Assembly (NCBI GenBank): GCA_051294375.1
Contig: CM119266.1
Span: forward strand, 9,804,538 to 9,868,363
Length of the DNA stretch: 63,826 nucleotides
Direction of reading: 5' to 3'
Source: Paraspadella gotoi
Taxonomy: Eukaryota > Animalia > Chaetognatha
Part shown: positions 23,944-59,646 of the stretch, piece by piece
How positions within the stretch are numbered: position 1 is the first letter of the stretch
Layout: every line of letters starts with the position of its first letter
Made by a program: the position numbers and the translations under genes
The notes under the pieces: generated by a model
Database searches by the model: none
Told to the model about the DNA's origin: nothing
Seen by the model: the letters and a program-made list of their open reading frames with translations, nothing else

Positions 23944-23975
<32 letters not shown>

Positions 23976-28338: not shown

Positions 28339-28372
<34 letters not shown>

Positions 28373-30306
28373 GTCGCACCGCCGCGCGGGCGCCGCCGCA
28401 CGATTATTTCATTGGAAAAACTAAGGACGCGTAGGCAAGCTGCTCGAAAGGATAAACAATCGCCGCATTCGGCTCCACTTGTCCTATGCAAGTGTATCTG
28501 GCTCTGCGTGCCGAAGGTCGCTCTGCTTGTGCTGGCTCCTTTCATTCTGCTTCTGGTAATAATTTTCGGCCTGCTTGCTCAAAGGAGTTTGAATCCTGGC
28601 TTTTGATCGCCCTGCCTGTTGGGGCTCCTCTGATAATTTCTCTCCTCGTCTATTTGAAATCATAATATTAGTCTGGATCCTCGAAATCGCCATACCTGGT
28701 CTAAATTTAGTTCCTGCTCCTATAATTCTCTTTTTTGTTCCTGCTCCAATCGCCCGGGGCTATATTCACGGTTCCAATCTTCCGACTGGTCTTCTTTTGC
28801 CCTCGCGTATTAGGAACTCTGCTCTCTCCCTCTATTCTCTTTCCTCCTGCCTTCAACCCTCGCCTTTCCTCTCGCTCCTCATGCCTCCTCCTCGCTCCTC
28901 CTCCACAAAACTCTCTCTTCTCCCCCTCCGCCTTCGGTCGCGCGCCCTCTCATGGATGTCGCAAGCGCCTTCGCGCGTGCTTGTTGCTGATGAGAAGTAA
29001 AACAGCGAAATCGAGTCCGCCCGCCGGTCGAAAGGTCACCCAACAAAGCAAGCTGGACTCTCAGACTCTCTCTCTTCTCTCTCTCATCTTCTTCTCTCTC
29101 TATTCTCTCTCTCTCAGTCTCTCTCTCTCTCAGTTTCTCTCCTCTCTCTCATCTCTCTCTCTCTCTTCTCCTGCCGCACAGAAAAACCCTAAAAGAGAGA
29201 GAAACTTAGAGAAGCGAGGAAAAGGGGAGTAAGGCTAAGGGATAAAGATGAGAAGTGGCGGGAAGTGGAGTTTTTTGGGAAAGTTTGTAAGTTTATCATA
29301 AAGTAGTAATAAACATCCAATAAAGTCATTATGAGTGAAACAATATTGTAAAAGATAAAAACTTTTAAAAATTTTTTACAGTTAATCCCCTTTAAAAAAA
29401 AACCTTGGAATACTTGAAAAAAATGCTTGGAAAATGTTAAGGTGGTGAGCCGAACGTCCGATTTAAATAAGGTTTCAATCTGAACGTGAAAATCGAATTG
29501 CATGCCCGAAAATTAAATTTAAAATCTCGTATGCAACTTAACCTGATCGTTTTTATATACCCATCTCCAGAACCCAGGAACAAAGATGTTGCTGGAGGAC
29601 GACCTGCGCGACCTGCTGGAGAAGTCACGTGACCGCTGGCGAGGGAAAGAGAGAGAGCGGCGGGCGATGGGCGGGTACCCTCGTGGGACGGACGGATGGC
29701 TTACTCAGACAGACGGCATCAAGACTCGTCTTTGGAAAAGAGACGGGTGAGAAATGAGGAAGAAAATGATAAAAATAACAAATATATTATAATAAATAAT
29801 AAAATTAAAAAATATACATTATGTATATACCTCCCTTTCGTTGTTTTTGAGGAAGATTTAGAAAAACACGTTTTTGTTTGACAACGATTTATTTGACACA
29901 ATTTAGTCAGACATGTTTCGGCTGATTCATTTAGAGCCTTCATCAGTGTTTGACATCAATATTTTTGTCTCTGTTTGAAGTAAAGTTTTTGAAGAAGACA
30001 AAAACTTAGCTTCACAAGCAAAATATTGATTGTCCAAACACTGATGAAGGCTCTAAATGAAATGAGGCCGAAACATGTCTGACTAAATTGTGTCAAATAA
30101 ATCGTTGTCAAAAAAAAACTGTTTTTCCGCTAAAAAATATACAGAAAATAAAAAACAAAAGATAAATCGACACAAAAAATAGCAAAATTGAATAAAAGTT
30201 GAAAAAGATTTGAAAAAATGAAAATATCAGTCAAAAAGGTAAAGGTAGAAAAGTGGAAAGAAAAACGGGAGAGAGAGAGAGAGAAGAGAGAAAGAGAGAG
30301 AGAAGA

Positions 30307-30362
<56 letters not shown>

Positions 30363-30471
30363 AGAGAGGCCATGGTCGAAGCACCTGCCCGAGACGACGT
30401 ACGGTGCAACAGATGCTGGGGGAAAAAAGAAATCTAAAAAGAAAAGGGGAACAAAGAGAGAGAGAGAGAAG

Positions 30472-30529
<58 letters not shown>

Positions 30530-31024
30530 GTGAAAGAGTCTCTTTTGCCAATTATTGGTTCCGCTTCTTCAGAAAAGATTCTTTTTCTTTCTTCGGTTCC
30601 ATTTTCCATACTGATACCATTTTTACCCATACCAGTAACCCCGCATTTCCCAGCCGTCTACAATCGGGTTTATATTGTTTTTGGAAATCATTTTTCTTCG
30701 TATGACGTGGTACTGTGCCTTTGTGATGATATATTCTTAATAACAAAGCCTTGTTCGTTGCCATGGTCAACTAAGTCTGTAACCCCGAAATCCTTTTAAT
30801 ATGCCACATGGCTGTCCAGTGCCCACTCGGTCCAGAGTTACAATCTGATCTACTCTAAAACAATCACCTCATTGTGAGTATAGACTCACCCTTTATATAG
30901 TTCTTCCGACTTTGCCCCCATGAGCACGCCAAAAATTCACACACAGAAATCTTCTCTGACGAAGGGTAATTTGTCTCTCCTCTCTGCTCGTCTCTCTTCT
31001 CCATCCTCTCTCTCTGTGTCTGTC

Positions 31025-31062
<38 letters not shown>

Positions 31063-32390
31063 TTTCCTTGTCTCTCTCTCTCTCTCTTCTCTCTCCTCTC
31101 TCTCTGCTCCTCCTCTCATCTCTTTCTTTCTCTCTCTCTCTCTCGTCTCTCTCTCTCTCTTTCTATCTTTTCTCTCTCTTCGTCTCTTCTCGCTCTCTCT
31201 CGTTGCTCTCCTCTGTGTCCGTGTCTGTCTGTCTGTCTGTTCCTCTGTCTGCTCTCCTCTCTTCTCTCCTCTCTCTTCTTCTCTACTCGTCTCTCTCTCT
31301 CTCTTCTCCTTATTCTTTCTCTCTCCTCTCTTCCTTCTCTCCTTTCTCTCGTCTCATTCCTCTCTCTCCTCTCTCTCTCTACTCTCTCTCTCTCTCTCCT
31401 GTGTCTGCTCCTGTCTGTCTGTCTGTCTGTCTACTTCGCTCTCTCTCTCTCTTTCTTTACTCTCTCTCTCATCTCTCTCTCTCGGTCTCTGCCTTACTGC
31501 TCTTCTTTCTTTCTCATCAGTCTCTTTTGCTCTTTTCTCTCGCTCCTCATCTCTCTCTCTCCTCTCTCTTCCGCTCTCTCCTCTCCTCTCTCTCTCCTTA
31601 CTCTCTGTCTCTCTTCAGGCCATGATCCCTCCTGCCCGCCGGATACCGCAGCGCGAACTGGCGCGACTTCCATCCGACGCTCGACCGCTAAAAACGTCGG
31701 GAGTCGCCAATCTCGGTCTGCCGGCATCTGTCACTACGTCCCGCGCCATCGTTGGAATCCATCCAACGCCGGCGCGTCATCTACTTAGCGAGCATCACCA
31801 GCATGTATGTTTATTCTGCTGCGAGGAGATTTTGTTGGAGATGCCTCGTGCAGGTTGTTTTCGAGGGTGTGGCGGTATGAAAGGTGGTGGGCCGTGGAGG
31901 TTTTTTGAAAAGACGTGTTGAATTCGTGATTCTTTCTTTTGCCTTTGCCGATTCTTTTCCTTTTTCATTTCCTTTTTTCTTTCGGTTCATTTTCCTTTCT
32001 CTTTCTTTTTCCTTTCTTTTCAATTTTACTTTCCTCTCTTTATCGGGATCCTTTAGTTTCCTTTCTTTCAGTTTCGCGTGGTTCATTGCCTAATGATTCC
32101 TTTCTTTTTCCTTTTCTTTTCTTTTCTTTTCTTGTCCTTTTCCTAACTCTCCTTTTTTCCCACTTTCTTCACTCTTCTTTCTTTCTTAACTTTGCCTTTC
32201 ATATCCTTTTTCTCATATTCCGTTTCCTTCCTTTTCTTTCTTCTCCTTTCCTTTAATATCCATTCCTTTCCTTCTCATGCCATTCTTTCCCATCCTATCC
32301 ATTTTCATCACATTTCATTCTCTCAATGTAAAAACCACGAATCACACAAATACATCGTTTTTCCGCCGATGCAAAGCGAAACTCCCCCCC
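25521..32390 (+). repeat. Copy 2 of the duplication (indel-rich, probably an uncorrected long read used for gap filling)
   Basis: Collinear with 18940-25483 but with dense 1-2 bp insertions. It has sequence where copy 1 has N runs. Confidence 0.88.
29857..30132. repeat. Noisy second copy of the hammerhead palindrome (inside the duplicated block)
   Basis: Same sequence with scattered indels; ctgatgaaggctc..gccgaaacatgtc at 30041-30079. Confidence 0.8.
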
Positions 32391-35300
32391 CTTCACTCCC
32401 CCCCATTCCCCCCCCCCACCTTACCCTCCCCCAATTCCTCCCACTCCCTCTCTCTCCTTCTCCCTCCTCCCCCCGGATGCGTCGCATAAATAAGTCGCCA
32501 TAAATAATTCGTGCGAATGCTCATCGTTAATTGCGATCGGATCATCAGTCTCTCTTCTCCGCCGTCTCACCGTGGCGGCGAGATGTCAGGAGTCACTTTC
32601 GGGGGAGGAAAAGGAAAGGAGGAAAAGAGGAAAAAGGAAAAAAAGGAGGAAGAAGGAAGGGAAGAAAAAGGAAAGAAGAAAGGGAATAAGGAAACAGAAA
32701 TTGAGGACCCGGGGAAAATGAGGAGACAAGAAGACAAGAAATAAGAAATGAATAATAAGTATTCTTCCAGCGTAGAAACGAAAGCATAGGCAAGATAATA
32801 AAACCGTCGTAAATGTTGTGGTTGTCGGTAAGGGAAGGAAAGAAAGAGAAAATGTAAGAAGTATCAAATATGGAAATTAAAGGAAACGCCCGGAAGGAAA
32901 GAGGAAAGTAGGTCGACTTTCATTGGAAAGTCTGGCGCCGCATCTGCGATCGACTTCGTCCCCGAGCGACTCGCGACGCCGGGGCCGTCGACACGCGGCA
33001 TCGCGCGTCGTCGATTCGACCGAGTTTTTGGTGAGGCAATTAAGGGGAGAGAGAGAGAGAAATCGAATGATCAAAGTGAAGCGCCATGTTTGTTTTATAA
33101 ACACGGAATAGAATCAGGAAAAGTTCAGAACTTTGGGTTAAATGATATTGATTATAAATAAGCCAAGAGACGGGGATAGCAATCAAGCAATCCTCCTTAA
33201 AAAGTACTGGACCGGAATGTTAATCGAAATGAAATACACTGCCTTAGATAATAAAATCTTAAACTCTAATTACTATTTTTCTATTTCTTCGATTCAGACG
33301 CCCGGCTTCTCCGCGCAAGTATCTCCTAGAGTGGCTCAAGAAAATCCGCGGCCCGATCGATCTGCCGAAGAAGCCTAAGGTGAGGCGGCGCAGGGTTAGG
33401 TAAAGTTCGCAATTAGGTAAGTTGAGCAATTACAACCAATGGATACCTTCGGAAATGGACCAATAATGAAATGGACACGAATGATTAGTTTGATCGATGA
33501 ATGAAAATCGAATCGATTCGATGAAATAAAATCCAAAGAAAATCCTGAACGCGACCGAACGCTGAATCGAACGCGACCGAACGCTGAATCGAGTGATGAA
33601 TGAAGTTGAATGCAGCGAAGAGAAAAATTCAAATATATTCAGAATTGCGGAGAAATTACGTTTTTCTTTTTTATTCTATTTTATTTTCTCTTCGGTTTAA
33701 AGGTTTCGAATGGAAAATTGAAAAAAAAGAAAAAAAGAAAAATACGTGAATATATTTTCTCGCTCGACGAGATTCTTAAAATTTATGTTTTTTTCTGCGA
33801 AGAGCGATTTTTCGCAGGCGCTCATTCTCTCTCTCTCTCTCTCTACTCTCTCTCTCTCTCTTGACAAATAGAGGATTGACAACGTAATTTGAATTCGCAC
33901 GATTTTTTCCCGCAAGCCCTACGCGTATACATTTTTGTCATTTTTATTTATCTATTTCTTTATTTTTGTTCTCGTCCCACCGCCCGAAAAAATTATAAAA
34001 TTAAAGAAGGGAAATAATTGTTTTTTTCGAGAGAAAATTTTTAACTCAGGAAGGCGTCGGGCGGTCGGCTTCTCCTGGCTCGCCGCGCATTACAGCAACT
34101 AAGGCCTTTGGGCGCTTCAGATTCCCGTATTGCCGTGTGATTGAGGGGTGTTTAGGATGGCTTCGCTTGTTTTCATTGCCCACTTCCGGCAAGGGAGGTG
34201 ATTCAGTAACTGATAGTAATAAAAGTAAGGGGAAGTTTTAAAACTTTGTTGTTATTAAGCGATTTTTAAAAATCCTCGTCATTTTTTGCGCATTAATTTT
34301 TTTATATCAGGTAATCTCGATATAAAATATTTTATTTTCGATACATCTTGCCATCAACGTATGCCTTTTGCCCAAATAAGTATGTTAACGCAATCGAACT
34401 ATTTGCCCTTCCGAGATTCTCACTCTTAGGCAGACGTGATCTTGGACAGCCTGACATGGTTTTTGGCTTGTTTTTTTCTTTTCTCCCTCCTTTTGTTTTC
34501 TTGTGACCATGAATTCTTTTGTGGTCTGATGCGCTTACAGGTCGCTTTGCACGATCACAATTTTTCAACGTGTCTCTTTCAGTCCAATCTTATCACTCGA
34601 AATCTTTTAATTGGCGTGGTTATTGGCGACTTCTGCTCATTAATTTCCTCCATTAATTTTCTTCCCCTTTTGCAAGGGGAGCGTTGGGTGCTATCTGCTC
34701 TATCTCGGTCTTTCCTCCCCAAGAAAACCGTAAACTTTAACATTACAACTCTCTCTTCAGAAAATTATTTGGGGAGACTGATCTTTCTCTGTGGAAGTCG
34801 TGAATCTGTGTTCTATCTTCCACCCTCTCTCATCGTTCTCGTCTTTGTGTAGTCGCTCTCCTCTTCTAGTAATCCACAGCGCCACGTTCTCTGTGTTTAA
34901 CTTGATTAGCAATACTTCTTTTCTTAAATTAAATCAACATGTACATAAACCGAACTGATATTGAGACCACACTTAAAAAAATTTTTATTTCCTGCACAAA
35001 ACTGTCGCACGGAAAATTAATTCTCTTCCACCTGTTACTTCGTTTTTCCTGATACTTTTATTTTTTTTTTATCACGAAGGAAAAATCATACTTTAAAAAC
35101 GTTTTATATTTCTTCTTTTTTTTTTATTTGTTGAGCGCTAAATTTCACCGGTTTTAAATATCGGCGGACGGGCGGATAAAAAAAAAAAAAAAAAACTGGC
35201 AATTTTTTAAAAATTATGTTTTTATTATATTAATTTTTTTTATTTTTTAAAATCTTTTTTTTAATAATAATCATCTTTTTTGTCTTCGGAGGATAGTTGT

Positions 35301-39494: not shown

Positions 39495-40010
39495 AGGAAA
39501 AACCCAAGAAGACGAGCGAGGAAGAAGACGAAGACGAGGAAAAGAAAGAAGAATCTCGAGAGGAAGAAAAATCGGAGGAAGGCGGAGAAGAGGAGAGGAA
39601 GAAGAGATCGGAGGAAGAAGGAGAAGCAGGGGAGGAAGTGAAAGGAGAAGAGGCCGAGGCTGAAGCCGCGGAATTGGCTAAGGGAAAAGGGGAGGGAACA
39701 TCCGGGGAGGAACCGATGAGGGAGGAAGTGGGAGGAGGAGGAGGAGAAGAAGAAGAGGGAGGGAGCGGTGGAGAGGGAGGAGGGGAAGGAGGAAGCGGTG
39801 GAGAGGGAGGAGGGGAAGGAGGAAGCGGTGGAGAGGGAGGAGGGGAGGGAGGAAGTGGAGGAGGAGAAGGAGGAGAAGGTGGTGGAGGAGGAGAACCGGA
39901 AGCGCCTCCGCCCGAAACCGATTCCGTCAACGAAAGCTACACTCAAGTCGACGCCGCTGCCGACCTGGACGCGCCGGTGAATGTCGAAGGCGCCGATGCC
40001 GATGCCGCCA

Positions 40011-40041
<31 letters not shown>

Positions 40042-40213
40042 TGCCGACGTCGCTGCCGAGGCGGATTTCAACGCCGGCGACGCCTCCAACGCCGACGACT
40101 TCAACAACGAAGAGATCGAGGGAATCCAATACGTCAACAACGACGACGACGACGACGCCAGCGTCTCCAGCTTAGACTACTCAGCATCCAGCTCCTCTGA
40201 AGAAGCGGATTGA
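39495..40213 (+). CDS. Terminal exon of an orphan gene encoding a highly acidic Glu/Gly/Asp/Ala-rich disordered region
   Basis: Long polypyrimidine tract and cacag acceptor (39494), an uninterrupted frame to TGA 40211-40213, (EGGSGGEGGG) repeats at ~39755-39870, and AATAAA at ~40313 and ~40327. Confidence 0.7.
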
Positions 40214-40948: not shown

Positions 40949-41608
40949 CGTGTATCTTGGTTCAGTTTCTGTCGCAAAGCTACAAAGAACGTGCAACCGT
41001 TCAAAACATCCTTCGTGTGAAAGCGGACACGGTTCCACAGCGCGTCGTCGTCGTCGCTACGTCGTCGTTCGTCGTCGTCGCGTCTCGTCGCGTGAAATTG
41101 AAAACTCTCGCTCGGATGACACGAAGCAATCAAAATAAAATTTCCAATTATTCAGGAGAAAAACTTTTTTCTTCCCGATATAAAAACAAACGCAAATTTG
41201 AAAATAGAGAACACGAAAGGGAAAACTCTAATTGCCAGTGGGACAGGAAACAAAGAAAAAAGAAAGGAATAACAAAAAAAGGAGGACAGAGAAAAGAAGA
41301 GAGAGAGAGAGAGAGAGAGAATGAAGAGACGAGAGAGCAGAGAGATGAGACCGAGAGAAGAGAGAGAGGAGGGAGAGAGAGAAGAGAGCTCGTAAAAAAC
41401 CTTGGGAAAGGAAAAAGGNNNNNNNNNNNNNNNNNNNNNNNNNTTTGTTATTCCTTTTTTCTTTTTTCCTCCCACTGCATTAGAGTTTTCCCTTTCGTTT
41501 CTCTTTTCAACTTTTCGTTTGTTTTTATATCGGGAAAAAAAATTTTTCCCGATATATTGGAAAATTTTTATTTTGATTCTCGTTCATCGAAGCGAGAGTT
41601 TCAATTTC

Positions 41609-41660
<52 letters not shown>

Positions 41661-41734
41661 TGTGAACCGTGTCGCTTTCACACGAAGGTTGAACGGTTGC
41701 ACGTTCTTTACTTTGCAGAAACCGAAGATACACG
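40949..41734. repeat. Inverted duplication flanking a 25-N gap
   Basis: 40949-41276 is an imperfect reverse complement of 41444-41734. In addition, 40900-40949 recurs directly at 41788-41839. Confidence 0.8.
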
Positions 41735-44887: not shown

Positions 44888-45199
44888 ACAGGAAAAAGAA
44901 ATAAACATAACACAACGCTTCATGCCGAAGGCGCGNNNNNNNNNNNNNNNNNNNNNNNNNNNNNNNNNNNNNNNNNNNNNNNNNNNNNNNNNNNNNNNNN
45001 NNNNNGTCTCATCTCTCTTCTCTCCTCTGCGTCTCGATCTCTCTAGTGCTCAGTCCGGTCCGATCTCTCTCGTTCAGTCTCTCTCGTCGTCTCTCTCACC
45101 AAACGAGATTAATCTCCATAGACTTTGTTTCTCCATATAAACAAGCGCGTGTACTCACCGTTCGGTAGAAACCAGAAGCTCGCGCTGCGCATGATAATT

Positions 45200-45250
<51 letters not shown>

Positions 45251-47038
45251 CTCTCTCGTCTCTTTTTTTTTCTAAGCTCGTTATGAAGGTTGCGTACGTT
45301 TAGTAGAATAAATCAGCCGCGAGGGTCGCTAGCGTCGCCGGCTGTCGTCGCGATATCCAACAAAAAGGGCAACGCCTCGAGTCTAAGCCCGTTTTCTCGT
45401 ATCCATTCATCTCTATTTTTTTTGTATTATTTTTTTTTGAAGCGTCCACGTGTCTTTATAAAACGCAATTTTTTTTTATAATTCTAAATCATCTAAATTT
45501 CGTGAAATAAATATATTCTAATTTTCAGGCTCTAAAGTTTAGCGGTCGATCGCAAAAACAATTAAAACCGACCGCTTTAATAATACATTTATTTATAAAC
45601 ATTATTTCAGGTATAAAAAACAAATGACGCCTCCTTGAATATCGTTTACTCATCTCTTCGCCGCCATCTTGTTTTCTTCCTCTGAATTTTTCTTTTCTTA
45701 TTCTCGATCCTCGAGGCGGATTATTAGTGGAGGTCGTTGATAAGGAGGAGGAGGAGGAGGAGGAGGAAAAAAGAGAAGTTAAGGAGAATGAAGATGAGAA
45801 TGAAGATGAGAAAGAGAAAGAGACCGAGGTTGAGAAACTTCATAATAGGTGTAGAATGACAAAAAAAAAGTAAATTGACGAAAACTTATTGATAAAGTTT
45901 AATAAAGATGAATACAGATGAATACAGATGAATACAGATGGACATTGGGCAGTTTTCTACAGAGGGAACAAAGCCAGATTGATTTAATATCAGTCCAGGG
46001 GCACAAATGGCACCAGAGAAAATCGGCTCACGGTTTCGGTTTTATGCTGACGGGACGAAGTTCCGAAAGCCAGAAATGGGCCGGTTGACCGTGGGACGGT
46101 TAATGACCGATACGACGACGATGGCGACGACGACGACGATGATAACGACGACGACGACGATAACGACGACGATTTGAGGTCGGTTAATCGTTTGTAATGA
46201 AGACGGAGCCAGGTTTTTATGAAAGGGAGGAGAGGTTAAAGGGGAAGGAAGAGAGAGAGAGAGAGAGAGACGATCGTTACAAAAGGATAATTCTGAGTAG
46301 AAATAAATGTTTACTCTTTTTCAATATGTATGCTACTTCGGAACAGCAACAGAAACAGAAGGGACATTTCATAGAAGAAGAAGAAGGAGGAGAGAGAGAT
46401 AGAGAGGGAAATGAAGAAGAAGAAAACAAAAAAAAAAAAGAGTCAGTACAATCAGTACAAAAAGGATCATTCTGAGAATGAATTAAAATTGAATATATAT
46501 TAATTACAAATGTTAGTAAAAATTTTTAAAAAAGCATATTATTTTTTTCCAAAGAAAAAATAAAAAAGGGTCAATAAAAAATGCCAAAAAAAACCGCCAA
46601 AAAAAACACATTTTTTCATGGCCTTTCTTTTCTTGGAAACCCATACCGTATGGAATAATAATAATAGGGCAGAAGTTTCGTACCGACCACCGACGACCGA
46701 CCGACGAAAATCTGAAAAACCAAGGGGGGAAAGGAAAGGAAAAAAAAAAAAACTCGTGAGCGAGCGGTTTGTTTTTTTTTCACTTTTCCCCCCTTTTTTT
46801 TCGGAGAGAGAGAGAGAAAGAGATAGTAACTAAATTTACTACTACTAATAACTTAGCTTTATTCGTCGGTGGCGTCCATCTTCTTCTTCTCGGCATCCAT
46901 TTTCTTCGTTTAGACCCGGGAGAGAGAGTCGCATTTTTATAGGCAAATTTTTTTTTTTTTTTTTATCTCTGCCGTTTATCTCGCTGTGGCGGTGGTTGAA
47001 GAGATTCGTTAATAGAGTAGGTAAAACGGTGGTTTTAA

Positions 47039-50000
47039 TTAAAAAATAAATAAAATAAAAATTGTTACTACGATAATCGATATCGAATAAAAGTCGTTCG
47101 CTTTTTGGACGGAGAGAGGTCCCGCTGCAGCGACAGCTGCGTCGACGCTGCTAAAAGTTACTCTCTCTTTCCGCTGCATCATTCCGCTCATTCTCTCCGA
47201 GTCCGCTACTACTGCTCCTCCTCCTCTTCTAGGTTGATAAGAGTCGTCGTCGTCGTCGCTTCTCGTCGTCCTCGCCGTCGTCATCGTCCCACTTTCGTCG
47301 GCCATTCTCGTCGTCGTCCATTTTTTTTCGTCATTCTCGTCGTCGTCGTCGTCTCTCTCTTCGGCAATCCAAGATAGCGCGGCTCGATGCGCCAGATGAT
47401 GGTTCAAGGGAAGGGAATAATAGGCTCAGCCAGAAGCGTTTGTCCTATTAATAATATATGTATGTATGTATGTATGTATAATAAATGTAACAAAAAAAAA
47501 CGCGACGACTAACTTCGAAATTGCTGAGGGAAATTTTTTCCATTCGACCTTGAACATGGAATATCCGCCGTTTCTAATTGCGCGAGCCTGTGTCGTCTTG
47601 GGCCGATCGTGACTCAAGACGTCTTCGTACCAACTCGTTATTATTTACGTATTTACAATATTATATAATTTATATATATTTCTCTCTTTCCTCACCGGTA
47701 TTGGTCAAACGTTGAGCCACCAATCTTTTAGTTATTCCTATTACATCTGGCGCTTTTTTCTAATATTTCGATCCTCTCGGGAAAAAGGCCACCTTGCCGC
47801 AGCGGCGGCGCAGCGGTAGGGGTAGCGGCGGGAAAACAACCCCTATCATCGTCGTCGAGGAGGCCTCCCCTAATCGCGGAGCTAGAGGAGGCGGAAGGAG
47901 GAGGGTGGCTTCCCCGACGCCTCGAGAATCCGGCGAGAGAGTTGGGGGGGCCTTGGAAGGCCCCCCCCAACCCTCTTCTCGCGCGGATTTTCCAGGTGTG
48001 ACAAAAATTTTTTTTTCTCCTCCGCCCCCTCTCCTCCTCCCATCTCCTCCCCCCTCCTCGCCTCGAAAAATTTTTTTTTTGGGGAGGGAGGAGGAGGAGG
48101 GGAGGAGGAGGGGGGGAAGGGGAGGGAAGAGAGAGGGAAGATAGGCGGAGGGGAATTGGACGGCGAGTACAGGAGGCGGGGTAAACGAAGAAGAAGGTGG
48201 ACTGAACCTTCCCTCGGGTTATCGTTATTTTCTTTTTTTGGCTTTTTCCTCCCAACAGTCCCCCTTGATTCTGCTAATCTCTAGGTCGTCTTCGTCGTCG
48301 TCCAAATGCCTCCAAGAAGAGGACGAAAAAGAAGAGGAGGACGGTCGCCACCTCCCTTTCTCGATTATCTCGAGTAGATCGACCTCGGGATCGTAATCTT
48401 CTCGAGTGGGCGCCGGGGGTGCCTCGAGAAATAGGGGAGGAATTTCGGGGGGGCGGAGTCGCGATCGACGCCTCGCCCAGGGACCGTGGTCCTCGGGTAA
48501 CTCAAAGGGCCAGGTTCTGCCGCCGCCGGGCCGCCGCAGCCGTCATAGTTTTCCAAAGAATAGCATTTCGGTTTGAGAGAAACGCACTTGTATAAAAAAT
48601 CCGCCCCGGATTCGTCTGACGAGAGAATGAGAGAATGAAAGAGAGAAAGAGAGAGAGAGGAGGGTTCTCACCTTTTAAGCAACCGAGTCTGTTCCTATTA
48701 CGATCCCTCCACATTCGTAATATAGGTATTCTATCCTTGTTTTTCCAACCAATACGGATGGGTTTCTTCCGGGACTATAATTAAGTATATAAAATAATCT
48801 AATAATGATAATATATTAATCAATTATTATTTTACTGTCTTTAACGGTCCAAAATGAAACAGAGGTGGGCCCAATCGCGCCAAAACGAAGCCAGTCGACT
48901 CTCGTATCGGAAAGCCAAGACGAAGGAATCCTAATTAATATTATTATTATTATTAAAACGATTATTATTTTTTTCTTCTTAAAATCAAAATTAAAATCAC
49001 CGTGTCTTTTGTTGCACGCCTCAATGCTCACGTCGGTCTAGCTTCGTTAAACACTCTTCTTTGTATTCATTTGAAAGAATAATATGTTAATAAATTCGAG
49101 TTTTCCAGTATGCGTCCTTAATTAATTAATGAGTTAATTAATTAATTATTAATTCATTATTTTTAAAAATTCTAACCTCCGACCATGATCGCTTGTTCAA
49201 GACGCAAGCGTTTTTCTCGAATTTTAACAAAGATCAAAAGAATCGGAGAGGGTCTCGGCAGCTGTGAAATCGGCGCCGATTCATCGCCGTCTGGCCAATT
49301 TTTTGTCGAAATACAAACGGATATTGTGTTTTCTCGTACGTTTCGATGGTCTATGTATAATATAAAAAAAGTTTGTAACTGGAATATTATATATGAATAT
49401 TACTATAATCAGTTTAACCTTGCGTACAAACTGTTTACGATCGTCTTGTAATGATTCTTTAGGAATGGCGATCGGCTCGGTTTCTTTTTCGGTAAGTAAT
49501 CGACAAAAGGCTTTGACGTAACGTTTCTTTGATCTAACGGTATCCGGCCGTTAATTTTTTCTACCCGTAACCAGTTCTAAACGCCAATTTAAAACCATGT
49601 AATTGATTACGTAATTTCCTTTCTTCCACGCAAGTAATCAATTTAGGATAAGAGCCGAGTCGAATCCGTAACGTTTGGCCAGTCGTATCGTTCGAGGAGA
49701 CAGTTGGTTTTCGGCGCCGGTCCTCTTCTCGCCGAGGGGGGGGGTACGCTCCCAAGCTAGAAGTGCAAATGATCGGGCAAATAATATGTCCACTCTACTA
49801 TGAAGCCACGTTCGCCTCGTGGGTCCAATTCCTTGTAAACGACCGTCTTCGTCATGGCCAAAATATCGGCTAGCTGATTACTCGGGATGGTGAAAAAACT
49901 CCTTTCGCAGAGGGTACGACATCGAATTTACCTAAATATTCAAAAAAAAAAAACGCGGAAATAATAGTTTCCATGTTTTATTTAATTAATATATTATACT

Positions 50001-53000
50001 TAACATAGAGATGGTAAAAATCTTGATAAATAAGTGGGTACTGCCCTCGTCCTCGTAGTCGAAACCCACTTGGTCATTGTTCGCCACGGCGTAGCGCTCC
50101 GGAAACGCGCATATGCCCCCCCGAATCAATACGCTCGAGGTCAAATATTGAAGGGAAAATCGGCTTCGCCGAATAATGGAATTTTCCACTTTGGTCATCG
50201 ACAAAAAAATGTCGGAGACCGATTCCCCGCGAACCGTAGTAATGTGGGTCGGTGAAATGCGTGAAGTTTCACGGTATTTTTCGATGAAATATTCAAAAAA
50301 CGGCTTCCAAGGTCAAGACGTCTATGATGTTATAAAACAGAATAAACTGTCCAAAGTCCGCTAAAGTCAAACATTCGGTAAATGCCGAGCGTCTTTTCGT
50401 AATCTTTCTCGACTACAAATTTCCTTGACATGTCGTCCGTAAATTCATCGATGGAGGGAAGGTCTGGATCGCTCAAGCGGTCAACGAAAATGCGAATATG
50501 GCATTTTTATTTTTTTGTAAAATTTCCATGAAATTTTGACCCTTAGCCTCTCCATAGGTTTCCGCGATTATATTCGGTATACCGGTTTGAAAAGTTCTTT
50601 CAAAGTTTTAAATTTGACCACATTCTACGCAAGGGCCGTGACCACTGGTTCCGACAACAAACGCCCCCCCCTTTTTTCTCTCGATTCCGTAGTCAGATTA
50701 TCGTCGAACAAAAGCCGCGAGGGAGGAAGACTGAAACCTGGTGGTGGTTGGGTTGGGGGGAGAGAGAAGAGATAATTTAATAGTTAATTTAGTTTTATAC
50801 TATTCCTTGTTTTAATAAAATACCTATAAGTACATTTCCACTCTGATTGTACCTTTTTTTGGGAACATTGACAGGTCAATCCCTCGTCTCTTCCTTTCGA
50901 TCTCTGACGATCCATTTCGGAGAAGATTCCGACTTGCGCCTCGTTCGCATCTCGTTGGCCGGAAAAAAGTAATCGTGATCCTGTTCGCTACGAATTCGAA
51001 TTCGATCTACGTCGTCGTCGAACTGATCCTATCGTCGTCATTATCCGTCGTCATCTCGTCGTCCGTCGTCGTCGTAGTCTTTCTCGGGCCTTTGTTTTAC
51101 AAAAATCGCAGTTAAACCTCGAGCAGGATAGAGAGAGAGAGGGGGGGGGGGGGGAAGATAAAGAGTCGTCGAAAATGCGCCATCGTGCGGAGGAGGAGGA
51201 AAATCACCCTTTATGTCGAAGGAGATATAATTCTCTTCATCGAAGATTCCGTCAGAATATTGGTGACGGACTTGACGTTAAAGTCGCTGTTACGATCTTC
51301 AAAAGCGTGAAAGATTGCCGCGGCGTCGAAATTCATGTTATGGAACAGGAGCAACACTTGCGATCTTACGGTATATTTCGCGTTGCAAAAGATTCTTTAA
51401 TAATAAGGAAAAAAAGAAAAAAAGGGGTTTTTTTGTTTTTTTTAAAAAGTAAATTTCCACTCGCTCGCTAACCTGCACATGGTTGCCCTATAATTCCCAG
51501 TACCGCCAACAATGATCCAGCACGCGATGGTTGGTACTCTCGTTCGTGAGACCTCGTGACAACAGTCGCAATGAGTGGCTTCGGTGTGCCTCTTCAACTC
51601 TTTCGTCGGTCAAAATTGGGGATCCGGAAATAAATGGAGCAGGACCGTACAAAAGCTTAGCGTCGTCTCTCAAGGAGGCGATGAATAGCTTGGCGCAATT
51701 CGGACCGATAAAAGATCTCGGAAGAAAATGGTCTTCGGAGAACTCGCGTGTGAACTTTGTAGCATACGAAAGCGGACATATCTCGCTGTAAATTCCAAGG
51801 ACCGCGCGATCTCCAACACTGTTCAAAGCGGTGCAAACTTGACCAATTTGTCACGTGGTTCAAGATGTAAGTCAGTCTTGACCCAAGGATAATGGGATCA
51901 TCTTCTTCGGTCAAAGGTTGTTGACATCCCGGGAGCCGTTCGACCTCTGCCGCCGCTTTGGCATAGGTCTCAAAAATCCGCGTATATCACGTACGGGTGT
52001 CGTAACGAGTAATGATGATGTTTAACTTCATCACGGACCCGGGTTGAGGATATTTGACACCTGCGTTTGTCGAAGAACGCAAATTCGAAAAATGGACAAA
52101 AAGGTATACTCTCGACTCCGTGGAGTAAAGACATCTGAAGGATAGGGGGTGTGGGGGAGAGGGTTAGTGAGAAAAGAAGAAAAAAGAGAAGGAAAAGAAT
52201 AAAAGAACTTGGCCTAGGACAAACGTGTTTGTTCTTTTGTTAAGATGAACCTTGTTTGTCCGAGAAGACGAGACATAGAGTTAATAGTACAAAAGTGGGA
52301 TGACTTTTTGTTGTATAATTTTAACAAATTTACAACCTTAACGTTCGAATTCAAAGTTCCGTTTCGGTCCGATACGTAAAAGGGGAAAAAGAAATGCTCT
52401 TATTTTTCCCCTATCGTTCATCTTGCGCACGTAAGAGTACGCGTTTATCGCCGAGCGAGGGGTTCAGGGCTTCGGATCTTTTTTAGATCCGATATCGAAA
52501 CGGGCAACTTTTCGAGAGGTCGCCGAAATTAATCTCTCGCGGAATGCTTTGAGATATTTACCCGGCCTCGATTTGGAATCGTCGATCTCCGGATGAAGCC
52601 CCGCTAAAATAGCGGAAATCAATAAACAGTTCCTGATCTCTCTCGATCTCACGTTCGTGACTGCTTTTTTTTCCGATTAATGAAATCGGAGTCTTAATGA
52701 CGAGCCGATGACTTTTTTGGACCGCAGATTGTAAAAGAAAGAAGAAGAATGCGGATAAAAGTCAAATCCGCCTGGCTCACGTTTGAAATATAAGAAGCTT
52801 CCTGATAATACAAAAAAAAGAGAGAAATGTAAAATAAAATATTCGCGAGTAAAATGAAGAAGAGAAAAAAATACCTGATCCAATTTGTTTTCAATTGCAA
52901 GGAAAATAGGGCCCATGATACGATCCAAAACCTTCATCAAATCCGTCCCAGATTGATGAGCTCCGATTTGTGGTCGTAATAAATTGCACGTTTCATCGTG

Positions 53001-53721
53001 GTCCGGACGAAGGTAGGTGACCAAGATGCAAACGTGAAATTTTTACAACCGGAACCCGCTTCAAACGTTCCCGTGATGAATTTTTTTTTAATTGTTTTCT
53101 TCAGACGAGAGAGCGCCGTTCTGTAGTCGGCCAGCTCCAAGGTTGGCACGAGTCTGACCGTTTTAACGACATTGCGATATTTGCGGCATCCCCCTGGACT
53201 GACGCGATACATGTCCCCATCATCGGCCGACGTGGAATCGTCATTCTCCTCTTCTTCTCCGTCAACGCTATCTTTTCCTTGGTGATCGACTTTGAACGGA
53301 AATCGATGACCGAGGGTCGACCCCGGTTTGACGCCAACGTCTTGACGTCATCGTCCGTCGTCGTACAGTCATCATCGGTCCCACGACCAAGCCTCAGGCG
53401 AGTCTATCGGTGGCGTCCTCCGCCCCTCTCGCCTATTTCCCTCCTCCAACCTGAGGTCCTCGTTCCTCCAAAACAGATCGACTGCAACAGGGAAGTTGAT
53501 CGTCGTCGACGGGGGGTCCGTTGTCGTTGTTGTTGTTGACGGAACGTCCGCTGTTGCTGTCTGCTCCTCCTCAACAACTTCCAAACCGGTTTTCCCCGGT
53601 TCGCGAACGAAAGGAATCGGCGAGTAGTCGGGAGAGGAGTCGTAGAACAAGGAAAGTTTCGCTTTCGGTATCTTCCTTTCACTCGATTCGTCAACGCTTT
53701 GTCATCGTTAAAAGAAGCCAT
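47039..53721 (-). CDS. pPolB: Protein-primed family B DNA polymerase of Polinton/Maverick (adintovirus) type, multi-exon, with many 1-bp indels in this assembly
   Basis: Manual minus-strand translation, allowing 1-bp shifts, gives the Polinton pPolB motifs in the expected order: KKAVTNV..NCLLISAILAGLHP (~52631); AINAYSY..VNLL..SSHFCTINSMSRL (~52305); KHVCPR|CL; ExoI HPYVIYADF(E) (51990-51973); ATHCDCCH..VLDHCW.TGNYR (~51579-51490); ExoII FHNMNFD (51345-51325); ExoIII YNIIDV (50334-50317); IRGG..RYAVANN; motif A QDF..LY|G (~50026-50005); motif B YKTIVNSLY(G)K|TIE (49450-49419); motif C DT|DS (49006-49001/48930-48925); LGCLK-D|E..LKPKCYS (48577-48557); FE|DKRFW (47444); then an acidic tail. Both ends are approximate. 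Confidence 0.92.
48931..49000 (-). other. Spliceosomal intron (70 nt, GT..AG, phase 0) splitting pPolB motif C (DT|DS)
   Basis: Minus strand reads GAC ACG|gtgatttt...attaattag|GAT TCC TTC. Removing the intron joins D-T-D-S-F in frame. Confidence 0.85.
52135..52213 (-). other. pPolB intron with non-canonical GC-type donor, strong branch point and polypyrimidine tract
   Basis: TGT CCT AG|gccaagt...tcactaac (52170-52163)...cttcag|A TGT CTT. Splicing restores the C-P-R-C zinc-binding motif. Confidence 0.65.
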
Positions 53722-55236
53722 CTGTTTGATTTTAAAAATATTTATTTACAAATTTTTCCAACAAGTCAAACATCATTTCGCCGTTTAAACAAATTTTATC
53801 AGAGTCCATTTCATTAGCGCCTTCTAAAGTTATTCTCTAAATGATAGTTTATAATAGTCATACAAATTTAGTCGAAATTTATTTTATTACAGTCGTATAA
53901 CGATTCTCTAATTATGGGGTAAAAATAGGCTACATGAGGATATAATATTTTTATTACTAGATATTTCTTACTACTCTAATAATTAATTTTTTCAAAAACT
54001 TTGATCAGTTGTAGGATTTGTCATTGTAAGCTAAATCAGTTTCGGAAAATGCCAAAAAGCAACCAGTTTTCAAAGTGTTTAATTAAAAAATGTACATTAT
54101 CGGGGGTCCAGGTGAGATTCCCGTCGGCATTGGCTCAACTTACGATGGATGGATGGAACTTGTGACTCGATTTTGACAAACGTGATGGAGACGTTCGAAG
54201 AGATCGAATTTCCTCCTTGAGAACGGTCAGATGGTTCAAGAGTTGACCCTCCGCGCCGCCAATTCTCTCCGAGGAACAGTTAGTTTGATTTGGAAACGGT
54301 GGAAGGACGAACAACGTCGGTGAAGTATATACACAACGAGTAATATAAACAGTTAATGTGAAAGCATAGCTTTTGCAAGTTCGACAGGATTCAAAAAAAT
54401 TATTTATTTCCAAATTGAAAGCCATTTTTTCTTTAAAAAAATAAAATTAAATAATCATTACGATTGTTTACTAAATTTTCATAGGTTGATTAAGAAATAT
54501 GCGCATCTATGATTGCAAGAACATTGCGGCGGACGACAGAGATTCGACGACGATGTTCATTTGTACATCAGAGTCTCCTAACACCTTTCTACGCATTGTC
54601 GCCATCTATCAAAATTTTCCCCTAAATTTTCTACGTTAAATTTATGGAAAAATGAGCGGTATCTTAATAAATTGATCAGAAAATCTTCCCCTTCTCCAAT
54701 GCCTAACTTCTATACAATTTTAAAATTTTTATAACATATCGTATATGTTTCAAAAAAATATCTCGCAAAGAATGTAAATATTGTCCTATTTCAAAAATTA
54801 AGCTACGAATTCCATTCTTACTGTGTTGATTACCTTCGACGTGTAAATATTCGATGAAAAAGACATAAATTTTAAAGGATTTTAGTACTAATTTTGAAAG
54901 AAGGAAAAGCTTAGATTTTTTTAGGCTGGTCAATGTCCGGATTTGGAAGCTCGTGGTCAAAAAGGAAAAGTTTTTTTCTGTATGTTCTCAAGTCCCGGAT
55001 CGTTCTCGGCATCTACCGGCGGAAAACTATTCTTCCCGATCTCGCGTGAAACCTCGAGACGATGATGAGACGGTGTGGTCCACCACTCGGTATTCGCGAT
55101 GAAACAGATGGTGAGTTTCCATCAAGACTCGAAGCATGAACGTCAGCTTCTGCAAAAAACTCGATCGATGGGCCACGTAACCACCGTTGGAATGGGATCT
55201 ACCCGCAAATTGTTCCATCTCCATCATCTCCGCCAT
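53722..55236 (-). CDS. Unknown coding region directly upstream of pPolB; either an N-terminal extension of pPolB or a separate gene
   Basis: ATG at 55236 (MAEMMEME..). ORF pieces 55027-55236, 54703-54960 and 54135-54425, plus protein-like fragments (ADGNLTWTPDNVHFLIKHFENWLLFG; GANEMDSDKICLNGEMMFDLLEKFVNKYF), run up to the pPolB region with no clear intergenic gap. No family recognised. Confidence 0.5.
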
Positions 55237-56570
55237 GATTATCTTTTCTCAAAAAAACACAAATTTTATACGGAAAGTTAAACCACAAATTTCTTCTACG
55301 AAGATTGACAAATTAAAATTAAAATTAAAATTAAAAGATTAAAGATTTCTCTAATTGTCTTTTAGCCTCTAATTGTCTTTTTAGCCCTCTTATTTGCCCG
55401 CCCACGTCGTAATCGTCCTCGTCATCGGTCATCCTCCTCGTCGCGACAACGGGACTTCTCCTCTTTCGCGAAATCCATCAGCGATTGGAATTCCAAGAGA
55501 GAAAGATAAACGGTTCCCCAGATTTATCATCACCGTCTTGGTTTGACAGTTGCGGCGGTAAAATGGTACAAACTTTAGAAAAAAATATTATTTTTTTATC
55601 AGATAAGTGATTAAATGACAGAAATAAAAATAAAAAAGTACCGCAATTGAACGGTGGTCCTGCGCGAGCGGAGAGACTTGATTCGGCGCTTTCCAATAAG
55701 AAAGCGCCAGCGATAGCGAACGAGAGATAAAGACGCGATCGCCGGTTACGTTATTATACCCAGATGTCTCGCAAGTACTATATATAATAATATTTTTTAT
55801 TTATAAATTTCTTTTTAAAACCGGAAAATAAAAAATTCACTCTGGAAATGGCAATGTCGGTACGTAGGATTGTCTACGTACCGACGGATAAAGCGTCTAA
55901 TTCTGCGAAAGGTAAGCTTAAGCTTATAGATGACCGGAGACGATGACGATGACGAAGAGCCGAGCTGGAACCGCCGGAAGAAGAGTTCGTATTTCTCCTT
56001 CTTTTATGACAACGTGGAGTGGTTTCAGCGGACGATTACGGCGTAGGAGACAAGGGAATCGTCATGGAACTAATTGAGAGGCAAAAAAAAAAAAGTAAGA
56101 AAATTGATTCATTCATTCTTTATTCATTCATTCATTCATTTCATTTATTCATTCATTCATTCATTTATTCATTCATTTCATAATCTTACGGGATCGATTT
56201 GACGTTGTTATATTTGTCGTTTTCAGCCTTAATGGCTTCCAAGGACAAACTAATTAAAAAAATACATAAATATGTAATATATTAAATGTCTCGTGTAATA
56301 AGAAGAGGAAAATGATGGAACAATTTAACTATTTTTTACTTACTGAACTTCTTCATTTCTATCACCGCGGTCCCTCCAGCCCGCTTAGTGCGAGAAAATT
56401 GTGCCATTCTCTTTCTTTTTACCGATGTTCGGCGCAAGTGTTTCACCTTTTTTCTACAAAGAACGAAAAAATTAAATTAAGTTCCGCGTATATTATATAT
56501 ATTCAAAATTACCTTAAATTTAAATTTTTTTTTTTAAAGAATTAATGACATCAAAATTAATTGAACGAGT

Positions 56571-56789
56571 TCAACGTCTCTCGTCGTCACGATTAATTTT
56601 ATTTTCTTTACACCCTTGGCAAAGGGTAAATAAATTAGTCTTACAAGTTGGACATACAGCGTTATCTTTATCATTAATTAATAATTTTTCGTAACAAAAA
56701 ATACAAGTTGGATGGCGCTCCCGACAAACGATGGTGCGCCGCTTGGGCAGAAAAATCTCTCGTAACAGACTGGACAACGCATAGACATA
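56571..56789 (-). CDS. Exon encoding a C3HC4-type RING finger (part of a multi-exon gene, ~55.4-58.5 kb)
   Basis: After the acceptor tttacag (56800): MSMRCPVCYE(1-bp shift)..VCRERHPTCIFCYEKLLINDKDNAVCPTCK, i.e. C-x2-C...C-x3-H-x2-C-x2-C...C-x2-C. Flanking GTAAG donors at ~57196, ~56344 and ~56189. Confidence 0.7.
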   Translation of the reverse strand, partial: YVYALSSLLREIFLPKRRTIVCRERHPTCIFCYEKLLINDKDNAVCPTCKTNLFTLCQGCKENKINRDDERR

Positions 56790-57392
56790 CTGTCGGGTCT
56801 GTAAATAGGTGAGAAAAAAAAGGTTCTTATTTATACCATACTGAAAGCACTTGAAATGTCAAAAGTCAAGAATAAGTGGCTCGGTTTTGTGATTACACCA
56901 GTGTGTAATTTTTATTTTTTTCCCTCTATCTCTGTATTATCAAAAAAATCTTTGGCTACCGTTCCGCCGGCCTTATCGATTCTTTTTAAAAGAAATCAGT
57001 CTCGTTCCAAAATCGTCGTTGTAATAACGTTGTAATAACGGCTAAAAAATGAAAAAACTATCCTTACAACTTCGTTAATCTTTTACTTACTATTAAAGAT
57101 GTTTTTTGCGTGGTGGACCCGATCAGGTAAACTCGTTAGTAATACTTTATTTTATTAATATTGTTTAATAATAAAAAAATCCATTAAGATACTTACGGTA
57201 AAACCGAAAGGGTCAACCGGTGAAGAAAACGCGTCCCCCTTTCTGGTGGACGAAAAAGTCAACGACGATGGTTAAGACGACGACGGTTTCCATCACGACA
57301 CCACCATGGAGCTACGACCACGAGCGAGATGAAAACGAAAAGAAGTGAGCGAGACGAACAAAATGACGATGACGACCAAAAGAGGTAGCCGC

Positions 57393-57558
57393 AACGACCA
57401 GGGCGAATGGAGACGACTGGGGAATTGGCAAACGACCATGGACGAGTTGAGACGACTGAAGAATTGGCGGAACGACCCATGGACGAGTTGAGGCGACTGA
57501 AGATTGGCCAACGACCCATGGACAAGTTGAGACGACTGAAGATTGGCGAAACGATGGA
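57393..57558. repeat. Four tandem ~39-bp units, probably coding (13-aa repeat) within the RING-gene region
   Basis: aacgacc(c)atggacgagttgagacgactgaagattggc starts at 57393, 57431, 57471 and 57510. Confidence 0.85.
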
Positions 57559-58689
57559 AACAAACGATTGGCTCGACAAAGACGGAAGAGACGACGACAA
57601 CCGATGGACCCACCCATCGCCATGGAATCGACGAAACGACCAAAATTGATGAAACAAAAAGCACGAGCGGCAAAATGTATACTTGGACAACGATGATGAC
57701 AACGATGATGACAACGAGGATAACAAATGGATGATGGAATTCATACTACTAGTATGATGGAACAAAATAAAACCGCTTCAAAAATAACTAACCCATGGAC
57801 TAGTTCCATACGGTTATGAGAGATTCGACCCATTTCGTTGGGAATACCAAAACTGTAAACTGCAACACGGAGAATAAAGGAAGAAGGAGATTTAACGATG
57901 AATTTGGTGATAAATTTTTTACAGTCGGGATTGAGCGTAGGAATCTTATTTGGTTTTTTCACCATTTTATTAAAGTAAATAAATTAATTCAACATCAAAT
58001 TAAAAAAAAATCGACCCTCTCCGCCCAAACGAACGTCGAGCATTAATAAATACTAAAAAGAAAAAATAAGAGTATTAGAAAATATAAAGAAACAGGGAGA
58101 GATCCTGATTCCGGGAAGAAGAGGAATTCGATGGCGAAGTGGACCGCAAAAAACCTTCGCATCTCTGTTGAAAAAAAAAAGAAAATTAAGGAGAATTATA
58201 AACTTACCTTTCTGGAAAGTAAAAATAATAAAGGTTTGAGAATTCGGTGATACCATTGTCATCGTCTTCTTCGACGAAGACAATTATCACGAAGAAACAA
58301 CGTTTATAGAACTACATGAGGAAAACCCACTTCATTAAAAACATTTGGAAATATTGATAAAAAGAAAACCAAAATTTGAAATGACGTACGAAACTGACGA
58401 AATAAAGTGGAGAAACTATGAAAGCGAAAGTGAACAAATATTGGTAAAACACTATCTAGCATAGTAATTCCCAAACATTCATTCGTCCTAAAAAAATCCA
58501 AACGCGATGCCGAACTTATTTGAATAAACAATAAGAGAGTGGGGGGTGAATAGAGGGAACTAAAAATTATTTGTTAATTTTTTTTGACCAATTTTATTAC
58601 TATAAACTAGAAAAATATCCGACACTGTGTAGATCTTATCAATAAACAAAAGACGTAAAGAGGTTCGATGAGAAAGAGCACACCTGCGG

Positions 58690-58733
58690 TTTCGCGCGGC
58701 TAAAAAGCGTTACGTCAGCATTTTTTTACGTCA
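58690..58733. promoter_or_regulatory. E2F-like site plus two ATF/CRE-like sites upstream of the minus-strand RING/pPolB cluster
   Basis: TTTCGCGC at 58690-58697; TTACGTCA at 58710-58717 and 58726-58733. Confidence 0.4.
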
Positions 58734-59310
58734 GAATTTTTTCTGGCAGTCGCAGACAGTCAGCCAGATAGAAAAAGATAAGAAAGTCTAGTCGAATCGA
58801 TTCGCTAAAACGAAAGTGCGATTTGTACCGTTCTTATCTGAGTAACTTGATTTAAGCGATAAGTTTCGAGCGGCGCGAATCTTTTATCCTGGTCAAGGTG
58901 TGGTCAAACTGTGACCACGGTCTCAGTCAGCTAAACATCGGCTAAACGATCCGTCGAAATCAAAACGCAGCTGGCGGTTTTCACAGAGTGATAATCAACA
59001 GCTTAGAAAATCGTTACGACAGCTCTTTCTGTGAATCTTGATAAAGCGATAGTTTTTTGAGTTCGAGTGTCCGCAAACCTTATCAAAGATGGCCAGAAGG
59101 TGTAATAGTATATCTTGACGATGACGACGGCGATGATGTCACAGATATGATATCGACGATATCCTGCATAAAGGATGACGTTGACGACGACGCTGTGACT
59201 CTCTCTCTCTCTCTCTCTCTTNNNNNNNNNNNNNNNNNNNNNNNNNCCGCCTCTCCCGACGCCCCCGTCTCTCTCGGCGCCATTCCTGACAAAAACGCAC
59301 CGCGCATATA

Positions 59311-59530
59311 TTCCGGCACCCGATTCCCGGCACCAATGCCCTGACGACCATTTTCCGGCATCCATTTCCCGGCGCCCATCTTTCAGCCTGTTTCCCGGCA
59401 CTAATGTCCGAACGCCAATTTTCCGGCACCCAGTTCCCACACAATGTCCCGGCACCCAATTCCCGCACAATGTCCCGGCACCAGTGTTCCGGTACCCATT
59501 TTCCTCCACCAATGTCCCGGCGCCCATTTC
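59311..59530 (+). repeat. Array of about 16 degenerate ~14-bp units (tttcccggcaccca-like)
   Basis: Recurrent (t/g)tcc(c)ggc(a/g)cc core at ~13-14 bp spacing. Confidence 0.85.
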
Positions 59531-59646
59531 TCGGTCGCGGGGCGCAGTTTCGAGTTGGGACGAATTTTCTTTTTTTCTCCTGAGAAACGAATTATATTTC
59601 CTTTTCTTCTTCTTGAAAAAAATCCCTTTTCGCGTCTTTTTACGGT

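Follow-up and report, generated by a model that had tools for sequence, protein, structure and literature searches.

The gene described here lies on the minus strand of a 63,826-nt stretch of the Paraspadella gotoi scaffold CM119266.1 (the window, to whose positions all coordinates refer) and extends over 47039..53721 with 14 predicted exons. Judged from its profile match, the gene is a very divergent member of the Polinton-type family of protein-primed DNA polymerases (pPolB). We consider it fairly likely that it is the pPolB gene of a divergent, probably multicopy Polinton-like element, and that 13, perhaps 14, segments of it are removed by the major spliceosome of the host. Homology to the pPolB profile runs from 52798 to 47427 and covers columns 211-1231 of 1261, and both the start and the stop of the gene are uncertain.

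We assembled the reference set without using the intron model of the window. A short motif scan led to 24 viral loci, 13 polymerases were aligned, and 120 of 460 homologues were added to give a 133-sequence Polinton pPolB profile. We class these references as Polinton-type because their 129 loci, some of them on the same contig, carry rve-integrase clusters (71 loci), A32 ATPase genes (34) and double-jelly-roll capsid clusters (8). The window was aligned with a Viterbi procedure that allows frameshifts and jumps from GT or GC to AG, contains no composition model and was blind to the proposed introns. The profile matched the window pieces in collinear order, and the alignment reached 122.7 bits, compared with 16.5-20.5 bits for 20 block shuffles, 17.8-18.9 bits for the other strand, the reversal and the complement, and 17.6-24.8 bits for 17 other tile-strands. 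The identity put forward in the original prediction is thus borne out by the profile, with no control above 24.8 bits. When introns were forbidden, the score dropped by 52 bits to 70.3. The C-terminal part alone scored 47.3 bits (at most 20.3 in 30 shuffles), and exon 2, columns 211-383, scored 40.2 bits (shuffles at most 17.7) with its Cys and His motif positions filled. These columns probably correspond to an OTU-like domain, a name that no tool returned. Exon 1 (52875-53721) had no profile match, with 9.7 bits against at most 12.2 in shuffles. The motif order of the family is kept: exonuclease I, II and III, the DHC insert, polymerase A, B and C, and KxY, some of them with an internal break. 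Identity to the references is 24-28% along the optimised path, whereas the references share 37-55% among themselves (median 55%).

Pfam named no polymerase family in 37 stop-free exon pieces or three read-through frames, and the match to PF03175, a feature of the Alpha class that had been proposed as a check, was absent from all of them (0/37 and 0/3). This miss refutes nothing because only 3 of 14 intact reference polymerases of the subfamily match PF03175, which makes it a poor test; 8 of the 14 contain the endonuclease VII insert. Starrett et al. (PMC8502044) likewise describe the divergent OTU-PolB 'Beta' class as missing PF03175. One of the references (L017:3831-9392, 1,854 residues) has a weak C-terminal PriCT_2 match (E 0.0009). 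Direct searches found no relative either. A phmmer search against 1.84 billion proteins called from open reading frames (ORFs), with a read-through frame of 1,100 residues as query, gave no match; a word-seeded protein search with a piece of exon 6, confined to longer proteins, gave 31 candidates, none of which scored; and both matches of a PDB sequence search were due to chance. Viral and metagenome contigs searched with individual exon pieces yielded no relative, and exon 4 met with low recognition and no lead in the ESM Atlas. These failures reflect reading frames that are interrupted every few dozen codons within the exons.

The original prediction had listed 13 segments interrupting the coding sequence, 56-90 nt long, mostly AT- or pyrimidine-rich, and bounded by GT..AG apart from one GC donor. 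All 13 are present on the minus strand as described, 12 with GT..AG and one with GC..AG ends, and nine have a length that is not a multiple of three. Their composition (27% G+C, 9% G) differs from that of the exons (48% G+C, 24% G), and each combines U2-type ends with a pyrimidine- or AT-rich, G-poor body. The coding strand of the gene contains 17 G-poor islands, of which 13 are the listed segments and a 14th (48058-48176) falls inside a candidate intron starting at 48207. Among 463 GT-AG segments of like length in the gene, only 11% are equally G-poor. The donor is preceded by G in 10 of the 13 and by AG in 7. As a branch point, CTAAC or TTAAC occurs in three introns, the looser YTRAY mainly in AT-rich introns, and neither in five. 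Local alignment of the introns with one another (78 pairs) gave best scores of 25-30, or about 13-15 matched bases, from similar low-complexity tracts, and repeats at the intron boundaries measure 0-2 nt per side with one exception of 5. An origin from introners was rejected, since the introns are not copies of each other and lack terminal repeats and target duplications. The gains are probably old because the introns are unlike one another. In their CT tracts and GAC runs, the introns and repeats resemble the style of the flanks.

The blind alignment recovered 4 of 13 exactly at the strictest setting, the GC donor included, and 8, 9, 10 and 10 of 13 at four looser settings. The looser settings also yielded other skips (8 at a setting with 10 exact recoveries), which fall on lineage-specific insertions near 51819-51936, 50550-51100 and 47760-48540. 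Even without the splice rule, gaps were placed within 7 nt of both ends for 7 of the 13 introns, with identical length for 4. Blanking of a splice dinucleotide cost at least 5 bits for eight introns, which are the best-supported ones: 52135-52213, 51395-51472, 49932-50004, 49351-49418, 49117-49176, 48616-48671, 47634-47695 and 47445-47513. As a specificity control we aligned 80 ordinary Polinton pPolB loci (L025-L104 of the 129), a set biased towards intronless genes because it was picked by best tblastn score. No skip occurred in 56 of them; the other 24 had 31 skips, of which 29 were multiples of three and only one lay beyond column 660.

All features of the gene are given here for the minus strand, in the order of transcription. 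Exon 1 (52875..53721) is an acidic, low-complexity N-terminal region with a further GT-AG segment (53722-53771) immediately upstream. Intron 1 (52802..52874, 73 nt, GT-AG) is proposed from composition, stands at the start of the homologous part and was recovered at the loosest setting only. Exon 2 (52214..52801) is followed by intron 2 (52135..52213, 79 nt, phase 2), which has the GC donor, splits CPR|C and carries CTAAC 33 nt before its acceptor; it was exact in all settings, as were introns 3 (51395..51472, 78 nt, phase 2), 6 and 7. Exon 3 (51473..52134) contains exonuclease I (YADF) and the DHC motif of the endonuclease-VII-like insert, together with an insertion of about 40 codons near 51819-51936, and exon 4 (51208..51394) contains exonuclease II (HNMNFD). 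Intron 4 (51118..51207, 90 nt) is the weakest, being a multiple of three with 58% G+C and a pyrimidine-rich end, and could be coding. Intron 5 (50738..50823, 86 nt) has stops in every frame and lies inside the lineage-specific insertion at about 50550-51100, which has no homology. Exon 6 (50005..50737) encodes exonuclease III, the RGG motif and polymerase motif A up to LY, where intron 6 (49932..50004, 73 nt, phase 0) interrupts the motif. Intron 7 (49351..49418, 68 nt, phase 0) lies in motif B (K|TIE), followed by intron 8 (49117..49176, 60 nt, 10% G+C, phase 1). Intron 9 (48931..49000, 70 nt, 11% G+C, phase 0) falls inside the catalytic motif C, between DT and DS (DT|DS). This motif reads directly across the junction; blanking of the acceptor raised the score, and recovery was exact at loose settings only. 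The donor of intron 10 (48775..48835, 61 nt, 10% G+C) was recovered and its acceptor was not. Intron 11 (48616..48671, 56 nt, phase 1) lies within the D codon of KDE, and KxY then follows at about 48577. A stretch of about 780 nt without homology (47760..48540) comprises a low-complexity coding-like part and then the candidate 14th intron, which would run from a donor at 48207 to 48062 (146 nt) or to 47760 (448 nt), the longer form including G+C-rich hairpins (z -5.6). The G+C-rich hairpin stretch 47760-48207 could represent either one long intron or the insertion of a small element. Intron 12 (47634..47695, 62 nt, phase 2) and intron 13 (47445..47513, 69 nt, phase 0, splitting FE|DKR) complete the series. 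Among the junctions said to fall within conserved motifs, CPR|C, DT|DS, KD|E (with its D codon split) and FE|DKR can be traced directly in the window, but there is no literal LY|G or GK|T.

If the gene is indeed spliced, it would be transcribed in the nucleus by host RNA polymerase II, and the splicing machinery would recognise the introns of 56-90 nt because they are short, poor in G and rich in pyrimidines or AT at the 3' end. Once joined, the exons would encode a polymerase whose length we put very roughly at 1,600-1,900 residues. It would comprise an N-terminal part that is probably OTU-like, a proofreading exonuclease with the endonuclease-VII-like insert, followed by polymerase motifs A, B, C and KxY. 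Membership of the pPolB family suggests that the linear DNA of the element would be copied by protein priming. Such copying from DNA to DNA involves no reverse transcription, so that gained introns would not be purged and could build up in the manner of a ratchet, with old gains at AG|GT-like sites accumulating over time. Core polymerase motifs are interrupted by at least five of the introns, which would make replication entirely dependent on splicing by the host.

The stretch occurs in nine sequencing runs, none of them on record as RNA, which have one organism code and span three studies and two years. For runs X4, X9 and X2, each from a different study, contigs extend over most of the gene together with its introns and have substitutions and indels relative to the window in common, e.g., 112 gap letters over 2.3 kb. 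The many frameshifts of the gene are probably long-read errors because the three runs share these indels. Of the nine indel places listed for the gene, five are no more than 10 nt away from a frameshift in the alignment, and three no more than 4 nt. X2 leaves a gap at about 47570-48130. X2 and X4 both yielded unbranched contigs of 2.2-2.3 kb, which suggests that the copies are near-identical. Long assembled pieces of the gene stretch reach a depth of 1054-1595 in X9, high at both ends of the 8 kb covered, compared with only 59-98 for contigs joined via simple repeats. A second, diverged version of the 3' end (46830-47700) has a depth of 13-21 in X4 and 83-90 in X9, aligns only piecewise and stops aligning inside intron 12. 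A joint in X4 that skips 47628-47693 was rejected as a splice junction, as its ends differ from those of the intron and the joint is also present in the DNA run X9. Run X4 covers upstream DNA at the same depth, about 20-25, and behaves like DNA because its depth is flat through the introns and the upstream DNA.

The gene is located in a compact block of 12 kb. Dinucleotide microsatellites make up 0-0.4% of 47039-59190, in contrast to 3.3-3.8% of the flanks. The adjoining block 53722..59190 is microsatellite-free and contains small ORFs as well as five or six G-poor GT-AG segments picked by eye (55573-55641 minus, 56095-56226 plus, 56250-56343 minus, 56454-56512 minus, 57127-57188 plus and 58165-58207 minus). 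This block is probably part of the same element as the polymerase, and its small genes also seem to be spliced. Pieces of a RING-like zinc finger are found on the minus strand at 56574..56858 (zf-RING_4, E 0.002, below the Pfam cut-off), and two GT-AG segments then follow. An automatic scan for G-poor GT-AG segments gave 2.4-2.9 per kb in 43.6-59.2 kb and about 1 elsewhere, and is too noisy for intron counts. A coding-like 39-nt tandem repeat of 3.7 copies occupies 57410-57554, its small ORF following a 62-nt GT-AG segment. Just past the compact block, G+C-rich tandem repeats of 13-14 nt (59313-59534) could mark an element end; depth mapping gave no boundary for the ends of the element.

Several results weigh against the reading of an intron-rich Polinton-like polymerase gene. 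Although the motifs follow in the predicted order, they are not joined by removal of the segments alone, as had been claimed: the best path through the window copy also requires 31-51 frameshifts, and an intact natural copy is something that we infer and have not seen. The near-invariant columns were matched at 105 of 192, with 71 different, 13 at breaks and 3 missing. Homology lends little support to five of the 13 introns (51118-51207, 48931-49000, 48775-48835, 50738-50823 and 52802-52874). No spliced read was seen, and the contigs of X4, a run guessed to be RNA, pass through the introns unspliced, which counts against splicing if X4 is RNA. The depth in X9, roughly 15-fold that of unrelated contigs, suggests many similar copies (about 15) or free replication but is not in itself a copy number. 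The block at 45-59 kb resembles a single error-rich long-read fill, so that its joins to the flanks are uncertain. For hallmark genes, we searched the flanks with 29 profiles of Polinton neighbour genes and the rest of the window with ten. No rve integrase was found in the flanks or the rest of the window (15-23 bits, the control level), a test limited by errors and N gaps, and no double-jelly-roll capsid in the two flanks (15-18 bits) with a narrow 8-sequence profile. No cluster of reference neighbour genes was identified as an adenain-like protease or a minor capsid protein. No terminal inverted repeat was found around the block. An A32-like stretch of 47 residues at 56319-56459 (plus strand) scored 28.2 bits against at most 22.0 in 30 shuffles, which is marginal given the 29 profiles tried. 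It resembles the C-terminal half of packaging ATPases without a Walker motif or Pfam match, and overlaps a likely exon on the opposite strand. The gene itself belongs to the pPolB family; the element operates in the manner of a Polinton, but its assignment to that group is unproven, given that integrase, capsid and terminal repeats all went undetected across the window.

These results can be read in other ways. A decaying endogenous element, whose copies no longer replicate and whose introns arose once it had integrated and mark its assimilation, would account for the frameshifts of the window copy, the 71 altered near-invariant columns and the lack of any other hallmark gene. It would also agree with published cases: introns in endogenous nucleocytoviruses have been read as a sign of decay (PMC12768974), and most introners of dinoflagellate eupolintoviruses postdate integration (PMC12166617). 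We nevertheless consider decay unlikely, as the indels common to three runs point to read errors, the unbranched contigs of X2 and X4 to near-identical copies, and the catalytic motif order kept at about 25% identity to long selection on the spliced product. The original prediction had also offered a long-domesticated gene as the alternative to an intron-rich mobile lineage. A single-locus host gene derived from a Polinton polymerase, with introns gained as in other host genes, would explain its long divergence from all 133 references, the missing integrase, capsid and terminal repeat, and an intron richness that is typical of old host genes. This explanation is quite unlikely in view of the X9 depth, about 15-fold over the repeat-joined contigs, the second version of the 3' end, the compact microsatellite-poor block, the complete viral domain layout, and the kilobase introns of host-like exons in the same window. 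The mobile lineage fits better with the depth, the compact block and the spliced-looking neighbours.

Alternatively, a misjoin may have brought the gene into the scaffold from elsewhere, be it a free virus, a larger and unknown DNA virus, or a second organism sequenced alongside. The block is N-free and error-rich while the flanks are gappy, a clear artefact exists elsewhere in the scaffold (the duplicated 6-7 kb described below), the neighbours match no Polinton gene cluster tested, and the depth of one run is far over background. With nine runs sharing one organism code across three studies and two years, and with CT tracts and GAC runs in introns and repeats like those of the flanks, a misjoin is improbable. 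It is highly improbable that the segments are AT- or pyrimidine-rich insertions or slippage products with GT and AG ends by chance. The unspliced X4 contigs, the fact that no spliced read was seen and the five segments with weak homology support would allow it; splice-type ends in all 13, a narrow length range, strand-specific G-poverty, the coincidence of seven segments with gaps placed without the splice rule and the blind recovery of the GC donor argue against it. A bolder version of the favoured reading, which we put forward only tentatively, is that the element is an active protein-primed DNA virus or self-copying element of an invertebrate whose entire gene set is spliced, with introns in accessory genes besides the 13-14 of the polymerase. 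It would be present at about 15 copies per genome or replicate freely in some individuals, and its virion and integration genes would be too divergent or fragmented for the profiles. It would then represent an intron-rich branch of the Polinton supergroup that has stayed hidden from ORF screens and that its introns keep trapped in the nucleus.

The remainder of the window is of uneven quality. The scaffold sequence is gappy (5,769 N) and rich in CT/GA and GAC microsatellites, and the gene lies in the N-free stretch 45006-59221, in which single-base errors are frequent, as expected of long-read fill. A stretch of 6-7 kb is duplicated (18900-25500 and 25500-32400, 75-94% identity); the second copy is error-rich, and the duplicate is most likely a gap-filling artefact. 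A MITE-like (miniature inverted-repeat transposable element-like) 232-nt self-inverted repeat of 98% at 22881-23151 recurs in the duplicated block, and an inverted repeat pair of about 80% joins 40949-41243 with 41470-41734. An ORF at 39503-40210 (plus strand) encodes 236 Glu/Gly- and Ala/Asp-rich residues without a Pfam match. Host-like exons occur on the plus strand at 17036-17160, 22621-22770, 24760-24970 and 33300-33410, separated by kilobase introns as judged by eye, with long introns ending in CT. The exons 24760-24970 and 33300-33410 resemble a dimerisation/docking domain, and there was no database match. No homologue was found for one host-like exon, and Pfam named none of 16 other pieces.

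Surveys of Polintons and adintoviruses both search for and filter these elements as long ORFs free of introns, and copies with interruptions are treated as fossils (PMC8097293). If the present gene is spliced, such surveys overlook entire lineages and misjudge which of the copies are still alive; the gene emerged immediately with a splice-aware profile, whereas the search of ORF-called proteins found nothing. It would also provide a compact test of intron gain, with 13 gains where relatives have none, in an element without reverse transcription. Both the ratchet idea and a preference for proto-splice sites would be testable, and intron positions could be compared across independent lineages. 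Our literature search brought up no intron-rich Polinton polymerase; it did not extend to Repbase entries or supplements, and an earlier mention may exist. Term searches of 10.1101/2023.08.22.554363, PMC8502044, PMC9683012, 10.1101/2024.01.15.575659, 10.1101/2024.03.25.586562, PMC11131425 and 10.64898/2026.07.28.741278 yielded no spliced pPolB.

The original prediction assumed that Polinton pPolB genes normally have no or almost no introns, and published descriptions do call the core genes of these elements intronless (PMC8097293; 10.1101/2022.07.12.499685). Intact vertebrate Mavericks are reported to have no introns, citing Kapitonov and Jurka 2006, 'intact' vertebrate elements being defined as intronless and long insertions counted as decay (PMC8097293), and in nematode Mavericks the core genes are intronless and introns are confined to cargo genes (10.1101/2022.07.12.499685). 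The polymerase is of the same type in both, with intronless core genes there and 13 segments here. Group I introns are known in Polinton-like viruses (PMC12220804). The 'Beta' class pPolB is similar in motif order and in the endonuclease-VII-like insert, with about 1,020 profile columns matched to the 133 intact references; the present gene differs by its 13-14 introns, by three or more lineage-specific insertions, and by having no integrase, capsid or terminal repeat found near it. Dinoflagellate eupolintoviruses (PMC12166617) likewise contain spliceosomal introns within Polinton-type elements. Their introns are young repeated transposon introns acquired mostly after integration, whereas those described here are short, mutually dissimilar save for low-complexity tracts, and concentrated in one essential gene. 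Mirusviruses (PMC12768974) are unrelated large viruses with another polymerase type and introns enriched in virion genes, and the main text of that paper does not contain the word polinton. They resemble the present case in being nuclear DNA viruses whose essential genes rely on the host spliceosome, and the ratchet or 'evolutionary trap' argument made for them applies to this gene.

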